Below the pieces are notes generated by a model. That model made no database searches, had not been told where the DNA came from, and worked only from the letters and a program-made list of their open reading frames with translations. A stretch of DNA of 22,443 bases from Candidatus Bathyarchaeota archaeon (GTDB lineage: Archaea; Thermoproteota; Bathyarchaeia; 40CM-2-53-6): NCBI GenBank assembly GCA_963833125.1, contig CAWHWX010000027.1, forward strand, positions 1-22,443, in the 5' to 3' direction. Positions 11,329 to 20,424 of this stretch are shown piece by piece (position 1 is the first letter of the stretch; every line of letters begins with the position of its first letter). Made by a program: the position numbers and the translations under genes.

Positions 11329-11425
11329 TGACCATCATCGTCGAGGATACTTCTGCGTGGGATATTAACGTACCGTAAGCGGTACATTGATGTATCTATG
11401 CCCTAGGCCATATGTTATCTCCTCC

Positions 11426-11508
11426 TAATTTAGGGACTCTCGACTTACGTTCTATCATCCACCAAAAGTGGAGACAAGCCCACGAAACAAACAATACTTA
11501 CAGCTGCC
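11426..11508. repeat. Dispersed intergenic repeat, copy A
   Basis: 70/83 identical by manual alignment to 19881-19962; contains TAATTTAGGGA, TCCAC-N5-GTGGA and ACAATACTT. Confidence 0.9.
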
Positions 11509-11522
11509 ACGACTAGGTCTCT

Positions 11523-12038
11523 TTACTTCCGAGAGATGATTCCCTTCTCGTGCAGGTACATCCGATCCCCTGCGATCACCAATACGCCAAAGACCGTTGT
11601 GGCCGTAGCGAGGCTTACCGTTCCGATTACGATATTGAGGTTGGCTTTGATCACAGCGCCACCCAAGTACAACTCGATCAGAAGCAGAAGTAGCGCGAGC
11701 AGTAATGCGAGTGCCGCTGCGGTCGGTCGCGGTTTCAAAATCCAAACGGCAAGGTTACTCACTATGAGAAGCGCTGTCGCGCAGATGCTGAGGAATCTAT
11801 GCATGTACTCTACCTGCGCAGGCCAGTTGGCTGGAAAATTGAGACTACCATTGCAGAATGGCCAGTCGTTACCGCTGAGCGAAGTACCGCCAATGCCGCA
11901 CGCGGCGCCAAAGCCGCTTCCTGAAAGATAGGCTCCAGAGATGAAAACCGCAAATATCGAAACGATGGTAACGTAAACTAGGTATTTTGTTTTCTTAGGC
12001 TGCGGTCTGGGACGCTCTACAAGAGCCCGAGGTTCCAG
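11523..12038 (-). CDS. Short (4-TM) heme A synthase CtaA/COX15-like protein
   Basis: The frame of ORF 11523..11804 stays open upstream to CTG 12038 and encodes GFGAACG...DWPFCNG...VEYMHRF, the CtaA signature; start codon inferred. Confidence 0.85.
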   Translation of the reverse strand: MEPRALVERPRPQPKKTKYLVYVTIVSIFAVFISGAYLSGSGFGAACGIGGTSLSGNDWPFCNGSLNFPANWPAQVEYMHRFLSICATALLIVSNLAVWILKPRPTAAALALLLALLLLLIELYLGGAVIKANLNIVIGTVSLATATTVFGVLVIAGDRMYLHEKGIISRK

Positions 12039-12156
12039 ACCTATCGGTTGCTATTGCGAAGAAACTATTGAATGCAAGGCTTGCGTTTTCGGAGCACCAT
12101 TTCCGATCACGTGCCAATCTTGCCCATAATTCTAAGCGCTCGGCTCTTGCTGTTTA

Positions 12157-12705
12157 TCAGCCGAGCGGACGCATGTACGCGTCGACTCCCATGAAGCGTC
12201 CAGCTCGAGTCAACCATACGACTACCGGAAGGATGAGGAGGTTAAGTAGATTGAAAGAAAGTTCTCCTGGAACGGGATAAGATCCGAATACTACCGTCGC
12301 TGCCCAAATTGTTGCGAGCAGTCCTGTTATGCCCGTGAAGAAGCCAGCGGCCAATGTAACCGATAAAGTGAGCTCTACGATGAACTGAAACCAGCCAAAC
12401 CCGTTGATGTTCGGAATTACCATATTATGCAGGAAATCCCTGTACTGAGGAAACTGAGTGTATGTAGCTTCGAGGTTCAGATAACCCGGAAGCCACCCCC
12501 AACCATTCCACGGGGTCTTTCCAGTCCACCCCCAATACCACGTATACGCTGCGACCAGGCGCACCAGAAACAACGCCAATCCTGTTCCTGGCCGAAGCAC
12601 TTGTTTTCTTCCGAGAAGTCCTCGTATACCACGAGCTACACTTTCGTCTTGACTCTGACCCATAGATGCTGACCCTTCTGCGCCATTGACTTCTGGTATT
12701 TGCAA
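12157..12705 (-). CDS. DoxX / TQO small subunit DoxD-like membrane protein
   Basis: LFLVRLVAAYTWYWGWTGK...VELTLSVTLAAGFFT...AGRFMGVD; true start may be at MGQSQ. Confidence 0.8.
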   Translation of the reverse strand: MQIPEVNGAEGSASMGQSQDESVARGIRGLLGRKQVLRPGTGLALFLVRLVAAYTWYWGWTGKTPWNGWGWLPGYLNLEATYTQFPQYRDFLHNMVIPNINGFGWFQFIVELTLSVTLAAGFFTGITGLLATIWAATVVFGSYPVPGELSFNLLNLLILPVVVWLTRAGRFMGVDAYMRPLG

Positions 12706-12763
12706 TTATGCCCAATTTAAGCCAAGAAGTTTCCATTTGGTTGAGGCAGCGTAAGGACATGGG

Positions 12764-13288
12764 TCAGTGGAGGTTGAGATTCTGTTCCGACGCGACGCTC
12801 TGAGGTCTGGGTCTTATCCTGCATACTCCCGATTTGTTAAGCTTGTATGCTGCCACCACAAGAATTAACATAGCACCTAGCTTGATTGGGATCTGCAACG
12901 CGTTAAGCATGATCCCCACGGCTAGTAGCGCTCCTCCGATACCGCCAGCAACCGCCAATAATGGAACCAGGTAACAGGGACATGCTCCCGCAAGGACGGC
13001 TGCAATGGTTCCCAAACCCAAAACTCCCGTTTTGGAAGCGCTTCCACTTTGCCTTTGAAGAGAGATTTGCCTTATTGAAACTGTAAGCATGATTGCCGTC
13101 AAGAACGTCAATAGCAAATCAAGGAGAAGGTTAGCGTATGCCGATGCTGGGAGATAGAATGTGAAGTAAGGCGCGAAGAAGAGGAATGAGTCAAAGGAGA
13201 GGAGCGTGATTCCGTAGCCAACCATGATTACTACGCTTAACAGAACGTATTTTGCATCTTTGAATGTATCTAGGATGGGGGAACTCAT
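12764..13288 (-). CDS. 4-TM membrane protein with GACPCY motif
   Basis: Hydrophobic 174 aa ORF starting 3 nt after the dsbA-like stop; CxC in TM3 plus a C-terminal Cys. Confidence 0.8.
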   Translation of the reverse strand: MSSPILDTFKDAKYVLLSVVIMVGYGITLLSFDSFLFFAPYFTFYLPASAYANLLLDLLLTFLTAIMLTVSIRQISLQRQSGSASKTGVLGLGTIAAVLAGACPCYLVPLLAVAGGIGGALLAVGIMLNALQIPIKLGAMLILVVAAYKLNKSGVCRIRPRPQSVASEQNLNLH

Positions 13289-13291
13289 TTT

Positions 13292-14047
13292 TTATCCACT
13301 GGTGAGCGAGGCGACCGCCTGTTCGAATACTGATTCTGGTTGGCCGCCTGCGATAGTTATCATCTTGCCGTTTGGTCCGATGAGGAAGAATGTGGGTGTT
13401 TCAGTCACACCAGCTTGAACTCCTAAGCTGTGGTTGGCGTTGATGAGTGCGTCGTATTTTCCGCTGTTGAATGCTTGGTCGAACTCTGTCATGTTCAATC
13501 CCAATTGTTGCGCGAACATGTCCAAGTTTTGTCGGCTAGCCCAACCGCTGTTTGGAGTCTGCTGACTCTGGAAGAGGAGATCATGGAACTGCCAGAACTT
13601 TCCCTGTTCCCCGGCAGCGTACGCTGCCTCCGACGCGGAAACTGAGTCGGGCCCATAGAAATCGAAATCTCGCCACACCAGCTTAACCTTCCCGGTATTA
13701 ACTAGATTCTGTATCAGCATTGCTTCTTGTGATTTGTACCACGCGTCGCAGGTTGGGCATTGGTAGTCGCCGAACTCCACTATTGTTACCGAGGCGTTGA
13801 GTGAACCTAATGTCGGTGGAGAACCGGCGAGTAGGCTGGACGCCAAATCAGACGAGCTTGATACGCCGGACATTGAAGTGTCGAACATACTTGAGGACGA
13901 AGCTGGGAGGACTGTACTGGTTGATGCTGTCGACGAGGGCGTGATAAGGCGCCATCCTACTCCTCCAAGAACAATGATCACTGCTAGAAGGATTGCCAAG
14001 CCGGCAACAATTCTACTAGAGCGCCGGGTACTTGTCCGAGCTTTCAA
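13292..14047 (-). CDS. Membrane-anchored DsbA-like (Thioredoxin_4) protein
   Basis: TM anchor, Ser/Thr linker, VTIVEFGDYQCPTC, EQGKFWQFHDLLF, GVTETPTFF. Confidence 0.92.
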   Translation of the reverse strand: MKARTSTRRSSRIVAGLAILLAVIIVLGGVGWRLITPSSTASTSTVLPASSSSMFDTSMSGVSSSSDLASSLLAGSPPTLGSLNASVTIVEFGDYQCPTCDAWYKSQEAMLIQNLVNTGKVKLVWRDFDFYGPDSVSASEAAYAAGEQGKFWQFHDLLFQSQQTPNSGWASRQNLDMFAQQLGLNMTEFDQAFNSGKYDALINANHSLGVQAGVTETPTFFLIGPNGKMITIAGGQPESVFEQAVASLTSG

Positions 14048-14152
14048 TTCAGCTCGCTATTTCCGCCCTTGATCCGGTGTAGGCCCATAACCATTCCCTT
14101 TAACCATTGCACAGCTTAACAGCCGCAGAAGACCAGCCGCCGCGTTGTTACC

Positions 14153-14202
14153 TAATAATCTTTGACCAGATTCTCTTCCAGAACATCACCATCCATACTC
14201 CA
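14153..14202 (-). promoter_or_regulatory. TATA-like box with upstream CCA repeats at 11-12 bp period (dsbA cluster promoter)
   Basis: + strand TAATAA-N7-CCAGA..; CCA units at 14166, 14178, 14189, 14200; same geometry as 18275-18319. Confidence 0.45.
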
Positions 14203-14333
14203 TTGTTGGATGAAGACTTCGGAATTCGGGAATGTCATATCCGCCGGTTCAAAATAAGTTAAAAGCATCTTACCGAGACAAACATATCACCCAACAACGA
14301 TTATCCTAGGTTTACTGAAAGAGGAAACGAAAA

Positions 14334-14689
14334 ATGAAAGTATTGTTCGTCATCAACGATGCACCCTACGGGTCGGAAAAGGCATACAATGCTTTGAGGC
14401 TCGCCATGGCGATGCAAGCAGGAAATTCTGAAGTCGAGATTCGAATCTTCTTGATGGCGGACAGCGGTAACCTGCCGCGCTGCCTAACCAGTCGACTCCG
14501 CAGGGCTACTATAACGTAGAGCGAATGCTGAAGGCGGTCATCAACAAGGGTGGGCAGGTCAAGGCTTGCGGAACCTGTTCGGAAGCTCGCGGCATCGAAG
14601 GACTCAGTCTGATAGAGGGAGTTGAAATCAGTACGATGAACCAGCTGAAAGACTGGGTCTTCGAGTCAGACAAGGTTCTAACGTTCTAA
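14334..14689 (+). pseudogene. ychN: YchN/DsrE family sulfur-relay protein, frameshifted
   Basis: MKVLFVINDAPYGSEKAYNALRLA...FLMAD; removing extra bases at about 14463 and 14476 gives AVTCALPNQSTPQGYYNVERML...KACGTCSEARGI...DKVLTF*, 117 aa. Confidence 0.88.
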
Positions 14690-14819
14690 GACGACCGTCA
14701 GTCTTGCATTCCTTGGGTTCCTGAGTCCTCTCTTGGCTGCAGGAATACATGTTGTCTCGGAGCTAATCTTCATTCTAAATTCTGCCAGGCTGATCAGATG
14801 AGAGCAATAGTTCCACGAA

Positions 14820-14846
14820 TCGTGGGTTCAAATCCCACCGGCCCCA
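14820..14846 (+). other. Orphan tRNA 3' fragment (T arm + acceptor strand); att-like scar
   Basis: GTGGG-TTCAAAT-CCCAC-CGGCCCC-A: perfect T stem-loop and 7-nt acceptor strand; no matching GGGGCCG 5' half upstream. Confidence 0.8.
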
Positions 14847-14904
14847 CGAATTCAGTTATATGTAGTAGGGCTGAAACCCTAACCCCGGCCCCAATCCGTT
14901 CATA

Positions 14905-14947
14905 CGGGCGTTTTGGGGCTCCGAACCTTTTGTTCGGGGCCCGCCCG
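14905..14947. other. GC-rich hairpin
   Basis: GGGCTCCGAAC-CTTTT-GTTCGGGGCCC (11 bp, one G-U) enclosed by CGGGC/GCCCG. Confidence 0.6.
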
Positions 14948-14987
14948 AGGCTCCAACACGCATTGTACCGAATCATGGACAATGTTC

Positions 14988-15083
14988 GATCATCCACTAA
15001 CAGGGGGGAATTCATGGCTGCTAAACCATCTTATCCGTACATACCCAAAGAACCGAACGAAAATACAACACCACAATACTTTA
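14988..15083. repeat. Dispersed intergenic repeat, copy X
   Basis: 65/96 ungapped identity by manual alignment to 19301-19396; ATCATCCAC...AAAGAACnnAACGAAAA...ACAATACTTTA. Confidence 0.8.
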
Positions 15084-15323
15084 CCCCGACAGAACTGTAG
15101 GAGTAAAACGTGATTCCTGGGCGAAAATCAGTCGATTTCTACGGTAACCTGAACTCGGGTCTAAGTTTCGTGCGTCGCTTTCCGTCTGATTACGTCTGAT
15201 TACGCCGTATGCGAGTACCGTGAGGATTGCTAGTAGTGGTAGGCCGAGTGGATTTTCGGAAATTGGTGGAGCGGTTGCCGCTTGAACTGCGTCTCTAAAC
15301 ATGAGCCAAGATAGGGCGATGAT
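15081..15323 (-). pseudogene. C-terminal remnant of a membrane/surface protein with a PEF-like sorting tail
   Basis: ...IIALSWLMFRDAVQAATAPPISENPLGLPLLAILTVLAYGVIRR: linker, short TM, basic residues; no N-terminal domain in frame. Confidence 0.4.
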
Positions 15324-15338
15324 TCAAGCGGCTTTTCC

Positions 15339-15794
15339 AAGTGTGTGTGCGCGCACCAGATAGATGAAACTCTATGACTCCCCAAACTGATGCCAACCTT
15401 ACCAAGAGTCCCAAAATGAAGGCGACTGCTCCAAGAATCTCAAGGAGGATGAAAAAGTAGGTTAAGGGAATGGCCATGCTTGACCCAAATAGGTTTCGAA
15501 CAAGTCCGTTCGGTTGCCCAGCAGCCAACGCAGTTAACTTTGTGATATCGGAATTTATCCAGATTGCAGCTACAACCAGTCTCAGCGCAACAAAGCCGTA
15601 CCCGCCCCGAGACGTAGGCTCAGCAAAAAGAAATGAACGCAACCCTGAGGTCAAATCAAAATACCCTCTTATCCCTACACCATCAGGGCCCATTGAAATG
15701 CCTATTGCTGATGACCCTAACTTTCCTGAAATCTGAGGTCGTCGATTTGAATCATCGTCGTGGTTCGTCGTTCCATAAGTGTGTGTGCGCACCA
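15339..15794. repeat. Direct repeat pair AAGTGTGTGTGCGC(GC)ACCA
   Basis: Copies at 15339-15358 and 15777-15794, both preceded by TTCC. Confidence 0.8.
15360..15654 (-). pseudogene. Truncated DoxX family gene
   Basis: GFVALRLVVAAIWINSDITKL...LLEILGAVAFILGLLVRLAS; DoxX-like sequence stops at the 15339-15358 repeat; probable TTG start at 15654. Confidence 0.7.
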
Positions 15795-15921
15795 TTAGAC
15801 CCACACACAAATTAATTTGAAATCGCGTGCCACAATATTCATTGGGCGTTCCTCATCTTGCGTTTGCGCAAGCGATCATGATCGGCTGCATTAGTACTAA
15901 AAGATTAACTAGAACAGAATC

Positions 15922-15993
15922 ATGCATGGGGAGTGGCGGGTGAGTGGTGCTCCCACCCGTTCCGCCCTGAGAAACCCCGGAGTAGGGAGCCAT
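15922..15993 (+). ncRNA. Candidate structured 5' leader of queE
   Basis: GGGG(15928-31)/CCCC(15975-78), GCGGGTG/CACCCGT stem, CTGAGA, GTAGGGA; GCTCCC complementary to GGGAGC next to TTG 15993; AT-rich promoter-like box at about 15898-15908. Confidence 0.4.
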
Positions 15994-16799
15994 TGGCAAA
16001 AATCGATTCAAACATTCAATTGAAGAGAACAGAAGTTTCTGAAACGATTGAGCTCATCGAAGAGCCCTACCTGTCTATTCAAGGTGAAGGTAAGTATTTA
16101 GGAGAACCCACGGTTTTCGTTAGAACCGCTCTATGTCCTGTTGGCTGCCATTGGTGCGATAGCAGGTATACTTGGAGTCGAGGTCAAATTTGGGAATTCG
16201 ATAAGCTCAGGGAGAAAGTGGAATCGTTCGATTGCCCCAACGTTTGGATTACCGGAGGAGAACCGCTGATACGAGCCAAGGAATTACGCGGTTCATTCAA
16301 TCCATGAAATCGACTTTTAGATGGTTCATCTGCACGTCGGGTTCTCTCTGGAACACTGACATTAAGGCCCTGATTTCTCACATAGATCATGTTTGCTTAG
16401 ACTACAAGCTCGAATCGGCTCAAGTAAATATTCCAACACGACAGGAATTCGTAGACTTCCTCCTAACTGAGCGACGCAACTCATCCGAGTTCAAGTGTGT
16501 CATCGAGAAGCCTGATGATTGGGATGAGGTTAGGAAGTTAGCGGATCTAACTTATCCTGACGTAGGCTTCACAATACAGCCAATGTATGAAGCATGGATA
16601 GATTCTGACAGCGGGTCGAGGTCATCCTGTCGGCTACGAGTTTCTTAGGCCAGAAGATAGACTGATGAGTCAATTCCCGACGACTACTTACGCAGAGTGG
16701 GCCTCAGATTTTCTGAGGGAACTCCACAACTACCCCCAAGCAAGATTTTTGCCACAATGGCATAAGATGATCTGGCCAGACAAGTCAAAGGAAGTTTAA
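15993..16799 (+). CDS. queE: 7-carboxy-7-deazaguanine synthase QueE (radical SAM), two frameshifts
   Basis: SIQGEG..GEPTVFVR, CPVGCHWCDS, ITGGEP; frame changes near 16290 and about 16600; last frame ends ARFLPQWHKMIWPDKSKEV* (TAA 16797-16799); start uncertain (TTG 15993 or 16020). Confidence 0.85.
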
Positions 16800-16823
16800 C
16801 TCGACGTGGTGGGAGAATGACTT

Positions 16824-17573
16824 ATGATGAATGATAGGAGGGGCGCTGTCTGCTGCATATCGGGCGGTGTAGATTCAGTTACCACAGCATACTACGTGAA
16901 AAAGAAACTCGGGCCTTCCAAGCTGATGTTTATTTTCTGCAACTACGGCCAGCGAACCTACGGTTATGAAGAATTTTGTATTAAGAACATCTCGAAACAT
17001 TTGAGAGTTCCTCTAAAACTAGTAGACCTTCGCTGGTTGGGCGACATAAGTACCTCACTCCTGACTCACCCTGGCAAACGTATCCCGGAAACAAAGGAGG
17101 TCGACATCTGGGATTTAGAGAAGGCAAAACAACGGATGTTGAAATGGTGGGACCCCTGCCGAAACGCAATTCTGTTGCTCGTTGGACTGGCGCACGCTGA
17201 ATCCTATTACATCTCGAAAGGTGAGAGATATGACGTGTACATAGGGATCAGGCGGGAGACACCGGTTGCGATGAAGGACAATACACCTCGGTTCGTGGAA
17301 GAAATGAATCGTTTAGCCGAGCAGGCTACGCATCATGGAGGCTACAGAATATTAGCTCCACTGATAACGTATGACAAGGACAAGGTGGTTAAGCTTGGGG
17401 AAGAGCTCAACGTGCCCTGGATTTACACCTACAGTTGTTACGCGGGGTATGGTTATAGAAAAGTTCACGGTAGAAAATTACCAGTTCACTGCGGCATCTG
17501 CTCCAATTGCAAGAGAAGAAGAATAGCCTTCAATGATAGCGGAGTGGACGATCCATCGATCTACGCAAAATAG
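16824..17573 (+). CDS. queC: 7-cyano-7-deazaguanine synthase QueC
   Basis: SGGVDS PP-loop, NYGQR, P.RNAILL, APL...DK, TYSCY...CGICSNCKRR zinc site; directly follows queE. Confidence 0.92.
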   Translation: MMNDRRGAVCCISGGVDSVTTAYYVKKKLGPSKLMFIFCNYGQRTYGYEEFCIKNISKHLRVPLKLVDLRWLGDISTSLLTHPGKRIPETKEVDIWDLEKAKQRMLKWWDPCRNAILLLVGLAHAESYYISKGERYDVYIGIRRETPVAMKDNTPRFVEEMNRLAEQATHHGGYRILAPLITYDKDKVVKLGEELNVPWIYTYSCYAGYGYRKVHGRKLPVHCGICSNCKRRRIAFNDSGVDDPSIYAK

Positions 17574-17669
17574 ACTAAGCTTACTCGATGCTCGGCGCGC
17601 TGATGCAACTGGGTTTGGTAGGAATGAAAGAGGCTATCGTCGAATTCATCTCAACAGGCAATTTGTGGT

Positions 17670-18242
17670 TTAGTATCCGCCGCCTCCGCCTGAAGTGGTT
17701 GTGGTTGAAGTAATTAGTACGCCAGGCACTGGAAGGGAGTAAGCATACCACACCCCTTTTACTCCTTGACCGTTTGTATCGCCTGGTTTCATGTCCTTTA
17801 TGAAGTAATAGAGCGGCGAACCATTGTAAGTCAACTGCTTGCTCCCATCAGGTCTGGTGATGACGCCAAAGTTCGTTGCATTGAGCCCTGTAGGAAGATT
17901 GAGGTTGTTGGTGTAGAACGCAGGCCAGAACTTTATGCACACGCCTGTGCATGTGCTTGTTCCGTTGCCCGGCGTGTCAGTCTTAAGGAGATACAGTGTC
18001 CAACCTGTAGCATTTGTTAGGTAGAATCCTATCCCTTGTTTGTACACGATATTCACAGAGTATAGAGGAAAGCTGACACTAGACATCACTGTAGTGCTCA
18101 GGGTCTGAGTTTCAGTTTGATTGACTGTTTGAGTCACTGTAGTCGGATGGTTTACGAAGAAGGCGGTAGAGGCTGCGAAGATCACGGTTAAGACTATAAA
18201 CAAGGCCGACAGCGACTTGTACATCGGTTTGACTTGGGACAT
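17670..18242 (-). CDS. Secreted repeat protein, COG4315 / Lipoprotein_15-like
   Basis: TM/signal, Thr-rich linker, GWTLYLLKTD...CTGVCIKFWP...RPDGSKQLTYNGSPLYYFIKD..PGDTNGQG. Confidence 0.88.
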   Translation of the reverse strand: MSQVKPMYKSLSALFIVLTVIFAASTAFFVNHPTTVTQTVNQTETQTLSTTVMSSVSFPLYSVNIVYKQGIGFYLTNATGWTLYLLKTDTPGNGTSTCTGVCIKFWPAFYTNNLNLPTGLNATNFGVITRPDGSKQLTYNGSPLYYFIKDMKPGDTNGQGVKGVWYAYSLPVPGVLITSTTTTSGGGGGY

Positions 18243-18274
18243 AGCTTGTCAGAGTTCACACGGACTACTATGAC

Positions 18275-18319
18275 TACTTAAGCGGATTCCAAGATTGCTC
18301 CAGAATTCTTCCAAGAAGC
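18275..18319 (-). promoter_or_regulatory. TATA-like box with three tandem 11-bp direct repeats
   Basis: TTCCAAGATTG/CTCCAGAATTC/TTCCAAGAAGC (18287-18319) just upstream of CTTAAGTA on the - strand, between the COG4315 gene and the divergent wHTH gene. Confidence 0.65.
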
Positions 18320-18392
18320 CAACGAAATTCGCATAATTCGAGCGCTTTTTTACTACCATGATTCCCCTGACCACGGGTTAGAGGGGCTACGA

Positions 18393-18707
18393 TTGAGTTT
18401 AACGCTGAGCCCCGACCGCTTAAGGCGGGTGCTCCTGTACCTGATCTCAGCGACTAGGGGGGGCCCCGCCCGCACGGTGATAATTACAACCTTGAAAGAG
18501 CAGCCTATGAATGTGAACCAGCTGGCACAACGTCTGGGACACGATTACTCTACGATCAAACATCACTTGGACGTTCTAGTGGAGAACAGGCTCGTTGAGC
18601 CTGCTGGCGCCAAATACGGGCAACTCTACTTTCTTTCCACTGCCCTTGTAGAAAACTATGATGAGTTCATTGCGATATTGGGTAAAGTTGGGAAAAAGCA
18701 AACATAG
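18393..18707 (+). CDS. Winged-HTH (ArsR-like) archaeal transcription regulator
   Basis: LLYLISATRGGPAR...PMNVNQLA..LGHDYSTIKHHLDVLVEN.LV...KYGQLYFLS. Confidence 0.9.
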   Translation: MSLTLSPDRLRRVLLYLISATRGGPARTVIITTLKEQPMNVNQLAQRLGHDYSTIKHHLDVLVENRLVEPAGAKYGQLYFLSTALVENYDEFIAILGKVGKKQT

Positions 18708-18729
18708 GCCATGGTGGAGATTCAGGGTT

Positions 18730-19017
18730 ATGATAGGGCCATTTTGGATTGCAAATATCACGCTTGCGGCTGTGAATGTGGCTGTAGTTGCGGGCGTACT
18801 TTACGTATACACTAGTAATTTTGGTCCATTAAGGTCGAAGCTAGCTTTGGGGTTGATTGCATTCTCAAGCGTTCTCGTACTCCAAAACATCGTGGCAGCG
18901 TTCATGTATTGGGGGCTTGCGCAATCATACACAGCGGCCGTCGCGATACCGATACTACTGATCACCGCACTTGAAACTACAGGCTTACTACTCTTGCTCT
19001 GGGCAACTTGGCGATAG
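18730..19017 (+). CDS. 3-TM membrane protein paired with the wHTH regulator
   Basis: From ATG 18730: MIGPFWIAN...YVYTSNF...LALGLIAF...LQN...LET.GL..L; 22 nt downstream of the regulator. Confidence 0.8.
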   Translation: MIGPFWIANITLAAVNVAVVAGVLYVYTSNFGPLRSKLALGLIAFSSVLVLQNIVAAFMYWGLAQSYTAAVAIPILLITALETTGLLLLLWATWR

Positions 19018-19076
19018 CGAACCTGATAATCGCGCAGGATATGCCTAACCAGACGACTCGTAGAATTCCTCTTCGT

Positions 19077-19329
19077 CCCACCCCAAAGTGGAAAATACGC
19101 GAGCTTCCAACGATGCTCGTAAGTTCGCCCGAGGCTCCAAGAGCCATGCTCAGAACCTCACTAGGCAAAGTAATCCACGGTGCGTGGAGACTATGCGTAG
19201 TGGTAAACACAGCTAACCCACCACTTTTCTAATTTCTCACGCTTTACGGGGGGAAAACCTGGCTAACCCAACTTCTCGGTAAGAAGTTAACAAGTTACCA
19301 AATCATCCACGGGAAGTGGAAAGTGCGCG
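19077..19329. repeat. Three spaced ~25-bp palindromic repeats
   Basis: CCCAC-CCCAAA-GTGGAAAATACGCG (19077-19101), TCCAC-GGTGC-GTGGAGACTATGCG (19174-19197), TCCAC-GGGAA-GTGGAAAGTGCGCG (19306-19329). Confidence 0.75.
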
Positions 19330-19396
19330 ACCACTAAAACACCTTAACACAACACAACTAAAGAACGCAACGAAAACATAGCCCTACAATACTTTA
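19301..19396. repeat. Dispersed intergenic repeat, copy Y
   Basis: Ungapped homologue of 14988-15083. Confidence 0.8.
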
Positions 19397-19501
19397 GCGC
19401 TATACGAGTGAACAAATTACGGTACTTGGTCGATTCCCGAGGCTCCAAACCCCAGGTTCAGAGCCGGTAGAAACCCCACATGTAGGGAGCTTGAACCTTT
19501 A

Positions 19502-19525
19502 GTTCAAATCCCTCTCCCGACGCCA
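19502..19525 (+). other. Orphan tRNA 3' fragment (Ser-like, with CCA); att-like scar
   Basis: GTTCAAATCCCTC-TCCCGAC-G-CCA; starts at the T loop, 5' T stem and rest of the tRNA absent. Confidence 0.7.
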
Positions 19526-19558
19526 GAACTTGGTTCAGAACCTTGAGTTTGTTTATCC

Positions 19559-19849
19559 TCACTTTCTTGCTATGTGGTGGCGTCGTTTTGTTTCATGCGT
19601 GGCCTGCATGAATTCCTGCTCCATTATTCTAACCGCGGGTTCTGCTTTGGCGTTTGGCTGTCGCAGGGCGGCCAATTCTGGGGGTAGATGGCTTCGCATG
19701 TTAGTTTGCCATTCGAGGTCGTTCGTGGGTTCAGGATTTAGACTCTTGAACGTTTCTAGGGTCCTTGACATTCCGTCAACTACCCCGAGATAATAGAACA
19801 TCCATGAGGTTAGCCGTTTCATTGCGGCCTCATTAACTTGCGACCTCAA
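19559..19849 (-). CDS. Hypothetical helical protein
   Basis: 96 aa ORF between the tRNA fragment and repeat B; no recognisable motif. Confidence 0.45.
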   Translation of the reverse strand: MRSQVNEAAMKRLTSWMFYYLGVVDGMSRTLETFKSLNPEPTNDLEWQTNMRSHLPPELAALRQPNAKAEPAVRIMEQEFMQATHETKRRHHIARK

Positions 19850-19880
19850 AACACACCGACCGCTCCCGACTAACCTCCCA

Positions 19881-19962
19881 TAATTTAGGGAATGTCATCT
19901 CACCTTCTGTCATCCACCAACAGTGGAGACAAGCCACGGAACAAACAATACTTGCAGATACC
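19881..19962. repeat. Dispersed intergenic repeat, copy B
   Basis: Direct repeat of 11426-11508. Confidence 0.9.
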
Positions 19963-20100
19963 CCGCTCCAGGCACTAACAATTTTTCCGTTACCGGGTGT
20001 TTTCTAGGAAAACTTTACGGGAATATGCCCCAAAACCTCCCCCACAAAGCCTATACTTAAAAGCCAGACACATATTTTCCCCGCAAGGTTCCGATAAAAA

Positions 20101-20424
20101 GTGCAGTTTTGCCCGAAGTGCGGCCTCGCGCTTCTGCCCACCAAGAAGCAGAAGGCGGTTGTACTTAGCTGTCCAAAATGCGGCTACGAAACCCACCGAT
20201 CAGACCGCACTGTGCAGAAACTTGAGCAACAGAAGGAGAACGTAGTCGTGATCGGCAAGGAGGAGCAGAAGATTCGAACCTTGCCTAAGACCAAGGTTGA
20301 TTGTCCAAAGTGTGGGCATAAGGAAGCATTCTACTGGTTGGTTCAAACCCGTGGCGCTGACGAATCGTCAACACAGTTTTTCCGTTGCACGACCTGCGGA
20401 ACAACCTGGCGAGAAAATTCATAG
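20101..20424 (+). CDS. tfs: Archaeal transcription factor S (TFS/RpoM)
   Basis: Two zinc ribbons (FCPKCG...CPKCG; CPKCG...CTTCG) and acidic hairpin QTRGADE; TATA-like CTTAAAA at about 20056-20062. Confidence 0.97.
   Translation: MQFCPKCGLALLPTKKQKAVVLSCPKCGYETHRSDRTVQKLEQQKENVVVIGKEEQKIRTLPKTKVDCPKCGHKEAFYWLVQTRGADESSTQFFRCTTCGTTWRENS

Follow-up and report, generated by a model that had tools for sequence, protein, structure and literature searches.

What are the short non-coding repeats that lie between unrelated genes on a 22,443-nucleotide (nt) contig of a soil-dwelling Candidatus Bathyarchaeota archaeon? The window analysed here is this entire contig (CAWHWX010000027.1, our C27) of assembly GCA_963833125.1, which holds 3,073,301 bases in 39 contigs and is 87.8% complete with 7% contamination. 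A previous reading of the letters alone (hereafter the sequence-only reading) had noticed four intergenic loci (11426-11508, 14988-15083, 19301-19396 and 19881-19962) with a palindrome, TCCAC-N5-GTGGA, and a box, ACAATACTT, and had proposed that they were protein-bound sites of a recurrently integrating element. We compared the loci with the rest of the assembly, with 59 genomes of the family, 23 of them in the same genus, and with 105 genomes of the order. On the evidence below, the loci are probably relics of the attachment (att) arms of integrative elements that targeted tRNA-Thr and tRNA-Ala genes (the latter as called by ARAGORN), stacked on one another and since decayed and eroded.

The palindrome and box lay at the coordinates claimed for them, in numbers far above those in shuffled sequence. 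The exact dyad (TCCACNNNNNGTGGA) matched the window four times (11458, 19174, 19306 and 19913) against 0.03 expected, and none of 100 shuffles reached four. The box matched five times against 0.24 expected, a count again reached by 0 of 100 shuffles; four of its matches are on the + strand (11491, 15073, 19386 and 19945) and one is on the - strand, at the start of a DsrE gene (14338-14346). TCATCCAC had four matches (11455, 14990, 19303 and 19910; 0.88 expected), as did 2 of 100 shuffles. Identity between the two short forms (11416-11523 and 19872-19979) is 83-85%: 85% for 11426-11480 against 19881-19935, and 84% for 11480-11511 against 19934-19965. The two long forms share 74.6% identity over their final 63 nt (15021-15083 and 19334-19396). 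The window loci are homologous repeats.

Genome-wide, the exact dyad occurs only eight times: four times in the window, twice where the element recurs (C11:104-175 and C12:100215-100284, each on the - strand) and twice on C1 in unrelated sequence. Each of the 19 other ways to order the arm letters gave a control palindrome that occurred 0-7 times, and an nhmmer search of the genome returned four clear copies of the repeat family. Enrichment of the dyad is local and its genome-wide count is low; it is therefore no general promoter or terminator signal and marks a low-copy repeat family. Eight exact dyads in 3.07 Mb are not a motif spread evenly over ordinary promoters, nor did the loci prove to be decayed pieces of a known insertion sequence or coding gene unconnected with synteny breaks.

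The four loci had been presented as members of one family, with four further palindrome variants. Their homology stands, but not their equivalence: the loci are heterogeneous, and from their alignments they appear to comprise two right-arm copies with degenerate cores, one fairly complete right attachment-site (attR)-type arm, and one junction between a left end and a gene flank. This last locus, 14988-15083, is a probable chimera of a left-end remnant and an unrelated gene flank, its right 63 nt (15020-15082) having 98% identity to the sequence that flanks a surface-protein gene on its 3' side (C32:21264-21326). Among the variants, those at 19077 and 14993 are listed in Table 1. The right arm of the 14812 variant is the T-stem of a tRNA fragment, so that this variant is tRNA-derived, and the one at 543, with two mismatches and without any other family feature, is taken as a probable chance match.

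To define the unit we used an alignment (A4) of 11 copies, drawn from the window, C11, C12, the relative G038 and five metagenome loci (seven metagenome stretches, about five of them distinct), and built from it a model, R1, using sequence information only. Copies in A4 are alike from the dyad through to an end that resembles a tRNA 3' end, CGCCCC.GGC.CCA, and vary to the left of the dyad. The conserved stretch runs through the left arm of the dyad, GACAA, CGGAACAAACAATACTT and 9-10 nt to the CGCCCC.GGC.CCA-like end. R1 gave 16 matches in 7 of the 59 family genomes, all inside the genus (7 of 23), and a strict pattern search was positive in 5 of 59, with no match in a reversed control. Seven additional genus matches again have the box, 9-10 nt and a core-like end. 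The family is low in copy number, sporadic and tied to copies of tRNA 3' ends, which bears out the proposed link to integrative elements.

Two spacings relate the short and long forms to each other. The long form at 19303-19447 has ACGGTACTTG 25 nt past the box and, 7 nt further, an exact copy of a 12-mer from the end of tRNA-Thr, CCCGAGGCTCCA. In both G038:C8 and G038:C15 this motif comes after the dyad and is separated by 9 nt from the exact Thr end. The short forms, with ACAATACTTG, 9 nt and the core, align with ACGGTACT.G, 9 nt and the core in G038, and a copy in G041 carries an intermediate form, ACAGTACTT. Because its spacing to the core is equal in the short forms and in G038, ACAATACTT is best read, by eye, as a variant of the 10-nt motif (ACGGTACTTG) that stands 7-9 nt before the core, and not as an independent box. 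The plan of the right end would then be the dyad (A)TCCAC-N5-GTGGA(GA), 10-70 nt, ACAATACTTG or ACGGTACTTG, 7-10 nt, and a core made of the final 12-15 nt of a tRNA. Units also stand in tandem at a spacing of about 100-130 nt, in the window (19077, 19174 and 19306), on C11 (173/71) and on metagenome contig L031 (275/377).

What ties these units to tRNA genes? The orphan tRNA 3' ends pointed out near the loci are real, and identical to tRNA 3' ends elsewhere in the genome. Positions 14820-14847 are the final 28 nt of a tRNA on C16 (326950-327015), and 16-17 nt at 14940-14956 are identical to the 3' ends of both tRNA-Thr genes (C12:103243-103347 and C32:34658-34766). The Thr 12-mer has three exact occurrences in the window, two of them at 19128 and 19436, where the core and flank-like sequence are duplicated at a distance of 308 nt. 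Eighteen nucleotides at 19502-19519 are identical to the 3' end of a tRNA on C19 (109047-109160), so that besides the Thr 12-mers the window contains two other tRNA 3' pieces.

The same genome holds one paired arrangement. C12 carries, on its - strand, an intact tRNA with an intron; the tRNA ends at about 101740, and its final 14-15 nt are repeated once more 1,524 nt downstream. These are the sole genome copies of the repeat, and a short-form element abuts the distal one on its inside. This islet (100230-101754) is a pair of attachment sites of the left (attL) and right (attR) type, enclosing two small genes. The repeats, their architecture and the tRNA identity of their cores are, like this pair, direct observations.

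Relatives extend the pattern. The Thr 12-mer is present in 22 of the 23 genus genomes, six of which have paired Thr cores in direct order, 0.7-9.1 kb apart; the first core of each pair belongs to an intact tRNA (four of these directly after a PGK gene) and the second is a bare repeat. By these repeats, tRNA-Thr is an integration hot spot in the genus. A possible opposite end is visible in G038:C140, where, past an intact tRNA-Thr and a single base, come the 10-nt motif in reverse complement, TCCAC-N5-G6 and an open reading frame (ORF) of 384 amino acids (aa), in this order. G047 and G044 have this left-end sequence after their second Thr cores, and the order of features at 14957-15019 of the window matches that seen at all three places. 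In G043:C3, copies sit among PKD surface proteins, a PadR regulator and a terminase gene.

No recombinase had been visible in the window to the sequence-only reading, and a Pfam scan of its 32 ORFs agreed. The 384-aa ORF of G038:C140 offers a candidate from outside it. A 416-aa homolog on L031 ends 190 nt from an array of dyad, box, core and dyad. Searches of the 416-aa/384-aa family gave no Pfam match at E<=0.01 (PF00589 included), no PHROG match and no PDB sequence match below E 0.39, and its eight clusters in public data are all unnamed. An alignment of nine sequences kept the motifs GRK, RYG..H..RD, W and Y..DK; R211, R312, W336 and Y348 were invariant and H309 was present in eight of nine, with catalytic roles assigned by eye, without superposition. 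The AlphaFold (AF2) model had a mean predicted local distance difference test (pLDDT) score of 81.4, and its top Foldseek matches, 15 of them at E<=0.001, were all tyrosine recombinases (archaeal XerA 4a8e, E 7.9e-5; Cre, IntI, Tn1549 Int, XerH and lambda Int). By its predicted fold, the family is a divergent tyrosine recombinase, and a gene with this modelled fold thus stands beside such sites in a relative and on a metagenome contig. Seven additional recombinase loci did not generalise the att plan, as motifs lay near the gene in L087 alone and an ARAGORN tRNA was absent in six.

Two other sources of a recombinase were tried and rejected. The other large ORFs beside the G043 copies gave hhalign probabilities of 0.1-0.3% and are unrelated. 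A split, SSV-type integrase was sought by comparing the ORFs at the start of C16 with the window by tblastn; nothing scored below E 0.04, so the core flanks are not gene halves from that set. The C16 region itself (C16:1-13500, at a contig end) has six PF00589 integrase matches within 13 kb, amid overlapping ORFs on both strands, and may be foreign or mis-binned DNA.

We propose that the elements would insert, by means of a tyrosine recombinase, into the 3' ends of tRNA-Thr and tRNA-Ala genes in this Bathyarchaeia genus, and that each integration would place the right-end arm just inside the distal repeat, as attR. The candidate recombinase family may act on these sites, with the dyad and the 10-nt motif serving as binding sites for it or for a helper protein. 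Elements would have entered the same sites repeatedly and then have lost their integrases and undergone internal deletions, leaving the stack of arms, tRNA-end copies and orphaned cargo genes that fills about 11.4-20 kb of the window.

Several observations weigh against decayed att arms as the explanation. ARAGORN found no whole tRNA in the window, and the intact target tRNA expected at a boundary is missing there. Such a tRNA is present at the C12 copy and in relatives; the window array is cut off from its tRNA, or the contig ends first. As the contig holds no intact tRNA-Thr, the window cores are without an attL partner. At the Ala-type tRNA, the motif-like GATACTTG is direct, not inverted, and a symmetric core site is not general; the flanks of this tRNA differ among eight genomes, and among relatives, none of them close enough, there was no precise empty site. 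Homologs of the 416-aa family numbered zero in this 88%-complete genome, and its 12 PF00589 matches outside the window adjoin no arm copy. Strong recombinase matches occurred in four genus genomes (G038, G045, G051 and G053), and R1 matched in two of these four against 5 of the 19 others, a weak co-occurrence. The gene's orientation differs: the end turned towards the att site is the 5' one in G038:C140, the 3' one in L031. Window 14957-15019 bears a weak resemblance to the left end, with an unconvincing MAFFT alignment of the window row, and the TATA-like box and adjoining P0001 gene described below permit a regulatory reading of part of the unit. In favour of att arms, in 22 copies of the dyad the arms were near-invariant, the spacer was free and compensatory change was seen at 0 of 5 pairs, departures disrupting the pairing, in a set that was gathered by a pattern with at most two mismatches and is biased against covariation. 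This behaviour would fit recognition by a sequence-specific protein better than an RNA helix.

Public reads bear neither way on excision or expression. One soil-metagenome DNA run contained 0.19 of the sampled words, two sister runs of the same study contained almost none, and no RNA run containing them was listed; the contigs assembled from reads were sparse (150-270 nt) and showed no joints. Loose contig ends at 19525 and 19937 point to further copies elsewhere.

Debris of large elements is not the sole way to account for att-like arms. The units could be small mobile or capture modules without an integrase, such as attP-only mini-elements or cassette boundaries, acted on by a recombinase in trans, with single genes or small sets of genes being gained, lost and shuffled at them, and the array a tRNA-anchored, integron-like platform for gene capture. 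The arms and cores of the window bracket blocks of 0.3-4.3 kb, G038:C8 presents the order arm, toxin-antitoxin-like pair, arm variant, one transporter-like gene, arm and core, and neither the tandem units nor, in particular, the 308-nt duplication, which simple tandem integration of large elements would not predict, is out of place in such a platform. Yet we found no collinear pair of genomes that differs by exactly one unit-bounded cassette, genes between the arms lie on both strands, the probable left-end remnant at 14957-15019 and the integrase in relatives fit ordinary elements, and internal deletions can also yield short distances between arms. We consider such modules unlikely. Quite unlikely, in our view, is a gene-capture system still at work, in which a tyrosine recombinase invisible to profiles would shuffle cargo in integron fashion by means of attP-like units that switch between tRNA-Thr and tRNA-Ala.

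Other explanations would take the conserved sequence away from recombination altogether. It might be the promoter (TAATTTAGGGA on the - strand) and operator dyad of a P0001-type gene, copied along with that gene. A TATA-like box does stand about 30 nt before the TTG start of the gene at 19849-19559 and resembles the CTTAAAT-type box upstream of the TFS gene in 12 genus loci; gene, box and dyad occur together at three places (window 19559-19965, C11 and G043:C3), and dimeric regulators typically have an invariant dyad whose spacer is free. The box is missing, however, from C12, C11 and all five distinct metagenome copies, in which conservation begins at the dyad; the C12 copy lies between convergent genes; and the best conservation is on the side facing away from the gene, through the box and tRNA-like core, and this a promoter leaves unexplained. 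The P0001 protein, modelled as a five-helix bundle, has no DNA-binding mark and no PDB match better than E 3.5, and we hold a promoter origin to be quite improbable. A small structured RNA, made of a hairpin and a single-stranded tail, is very improbable. Its stable 5-bp hairpin with a variable loop, the conserved A-rich stretch that follows, and a TATA-like box about 22 nt upstream on the + strand of both short forms of the window might suggest one, but this upstream box is kept in three copies at most, the pairs of the dyad show no covariation, the unit's 3' end is copied from a tRNA end and linked to att repeats, and Rfam gave no match at E<=1 apart from a weak tmRNA-model match on the tRNA fragment (14759-14849). 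The replication role raised in the sequence-only reading, with dyads as origin-recognition-type boxes or Rep sites of a replicon, is barely credible: the symmetry of the dyads and the crowding of several into about 250 nt (19077-19320) recall an origin, but the 32 scanned ORFs include no Orc1/Cdc6, Rep or primase gene, 18.5-20.5 kb has no AT-rich unwinding region (GC content 0.48-0.50), and all copies share one orientation where origin boxes would be inverted.

Decayed att arms also have counterparts among known systems. A lambda-type attP consists of a core plus arm sites. Williams is said to have sorted integration in 2002 into classes by sublocation within the tRNA. The present units resemble the tRNA-3'-end att arms of tyrosine-integrase elements in their direct repeats equal to a tRNA end, conserved sequence on the element side, dyad and short repeated motif beside the core and, in a relative, a recombinase beside the tRNA. 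They differ from typical ones in a recombinase without a PF00589 or PHROG match, an invariant 5-bp dyad with a free 5-nt spacer, and two tRNA targets. Archaeal integrons were reportedly described by Ghaly et al. in 2022. Like integron attC sites and clusters of attC sites lacking integron-integrases (CALINs), the window repeats are imperfect palindromes that lie between unrelated accessory genes and have no integrase in their vicinity; unlike attC, they show no R''/L''-L'/R' symmetry, have a single 5-bp dyad at the left edge and end in tRNA-derived sequence, and unlike integron cassettes, the genes lie on both strands, with no IntI-like gene in the window. Cis-mobilizable elements (CIMEs), which retain att sites and have lost their recombination genes, are known from relatives of the integrative and conjugative elements (ICEs) of Streptococcus. 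The 1.5-kb islet on C12 and the 0.3-kb unit at 19140-19447 fit such att-bounded, integrase-less remnants, in principle movable by a related integrase, in a different domain of life from the Streptococcus CIMEs.

The closest archaeal parallels are cryptic and tandem integrated elements. According to the excerpts of two surveys used here (Krupovic et al. 2019, PMC6563490; Badel et al. 2021, PMC8371274), archaeal elements are known to integrate in tandem at one site, to lose their integrases and to exchange modules. The window shares with the elements in these excerpts tRNA targets, short att repeats, one-site arrays, frequent integrase loss and unrelated accessory cargo. As excerpted, the surveys covered Thaumarchaeota and cultivated archaea, and the window differs in that arms and cargo alone survive; the excerpted text of the review PMC8371274 contains 'arm-type' 0 times and 'Bathyarchaeota' 0 times. 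The kind of scar is already known, and the arm design, the two tRNA targets and the recombinase family missed by profiles are new.

Table 1. Features of the array of arms and tRNA-end copies in the window.
Feature	Position	Strand	Parts, matches or basis
Short-form arm, copy 1	11416..11523	+	homology (nhmmer/blastn) to 19872-19990, C11 and C12; alignment A4; R1 match 11455-11522, E 1.7e-16
Parts of copy 1		+	TATA-like TAATTTAGGGA 11426-11436; palindrome 11458-11472; box 11491-11499; degenerate tRNA-3'-end-like core 11510-11523
tRNA fragment X, 3' part, without 5' half in window	14805..14847	+	identity to C16 tRNA
Degenerate tRNA-Thr 3'-end copy and flank-like stretch	14916-14938	+	past 14924 resembles post-core sequence in G058 (L085)
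Exact 16-17-nt tRNA-Thr 3'-end copy	14940-14956	+	identity to tRNA-Thr genes of the genome
Probable left-end (integrase-proximal) remnant	14957..15019	+	CATTGTACCG 14961-14970; TCCAC-N5-GGGGG 14993-15007
Surface-protein gene 3' flank and C-terminal remnant	15020..15302	-	flank 15020-15083 with ACAATACTT 15073-15081; ORF 15081-15302
Palindrome variant CCCAC-N5-GTGGA	19077..19091	+	one mismatch to family dyad
tRNA-Thr 3'-end copy 2 (15 nt) with flank-like sequence	19126..19157	+	
Exact palindrome, then GAC	19174..19188	+	
Probable attR-type arm, the most complete	19303..19465	+	palindrome 19306-19320; box 19386-19394; ACGGTACTTG 19419-19428; exact 12-nt tRNA-Thr core 19436-19447, then stretch resembling downstream flanks of genus tRNA-Thr genes
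Second putative att junction copy	19463..19525	+	39 nt common to C16:426568-426630 and C31:55-114, 92-96% identity; also holds 24 nt, 3' end of tRNA C19:109047-109163
96-aa accessory gene, P0001 family	19559..19849	-	goes along with the short-form arm
Short-form arm, copy 2	19872..19979	+	TATA-like 19881-19891; palindrome 19913-19927; box 19945-19953; degenerate core 19964-19977; R1 match 19910-19979, E 1.1e-17

Turning to the genes around the arms, the loci do lie between unrelated modules, as had been claimed. The gene blocks of the window match unlinked, scattered places in relatives of the genus, and some match paralogous blocks of the same genome on C16, C17 and C32. The window is a mosaic of accessory genes. 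The TFS, QueC/QueE, DsbA-like and P-type ATPase genes found by the Pfam scan are archaeal. The 22-kb contig represents largely accreted accessory genes (redox, metal, queuosine and surface-protein functions) and not core chromosome, which matters for a metabolic reading of this metagenome-assembled genome. The mobile elements of Bathyarchaeia are still poorly charted, and the signature of dyad, 10-nt motif and tRNA-end core, together with the recombinase candidate missed by Pfam, may serve as a tool to find integrated elements in them. If the arms do recombine in trans, they would provide a simple route for the stacking of accessory genes at archaeal tRNA genes.

A paralog of the P0001 gene adjoins the C11 copy and a homolog adjoins the G043:C3 copy. 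The family has 12 public relatives, named 'hypothetical' at most, and is present in 2 of the 105 order genomes. As a DNA-binding helper the P0001 protein was rejected, having no Pfam, PHROG or fold match, and we found nothing that links the ribbon-helix-helix (RHH) gene at 257-469 to the dyad or box sites.

The element was also rejected as part of the TFS promoter, being missing upstream of TFS in the 12 genus loci. The TFS gene of the window (20101-20424) is 95% identical to C4:81699-82028 over the coding region alone, with a 1-nt gap near the start and unrelated flanks: the C4 flank is the usual upstream region of the genus, and the window flank matches two other genus genomes. The second copy could reflect gene conversion, a duplicate or two strains in the bin. 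Modules recur between islands as well. C16:423468-426630 matches window 12820-14017 and 19463-19541 in a different order, with 83% identity for a DsbA/membrane-protein pair and 92% for the tRNA-end junction; the genome's islands share and reshuffle modules. The DsrE-like (14334-14689) and QueE-like (15933-16648) genes are each broken into two ORFs, next to a whole QueC, which fits decay of cargo genes; one public contig has a 1-nt deletion at 16610 relative to the window.

A second conserved right end, containing ..CTTGGTCGACAGTTCTAAACGACGG.., precedes copies of the Thr core at C18:188550-188850 (- strand), in G041:C1 (L081 10865) and in G044 (L086 2337). After this copy, C18 continues with the flank that the intact tRNA-Thr has on C32. 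The CTTGGTCGACAGTTCTAAACGACGG end points to a further family of elements that uses this target, and perhaps to a bin of mixed strains. Concerning tRNA genes in general, the whole genome G000 gave only 18 tRNA-model matches above the Rfam cut-off, and ARAGORN assigned introns to most of its tRNAs, some implausibly long. Detection falls short for the heavily interrupted tRNA genes of this lineage, and additional att targets may be hidden.

Two further stretches of the window are conserved in their own right. About 105 nt of non-coding sequence at 14696-14807, directly past the broken DsrE gene, are 82-95% identical in at least seven genus genomes and at C7:28436-28540, a conservation that exceeds most coding matches; there is no Rfam match, and the C7 similarity ends at the start of the tRNA fragment. 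The stretch may be an unannotated small RNA gene cut by the integration junction. On the - strand, 15190-15275 encodes a C-terminal membrane-anchor signal (..PLGLP.LAILT.LAYGVIRR). About 20 partial copies of it terminate secreted-protein ORFs of this genome, probably as a sorting tag specific to the lineage.

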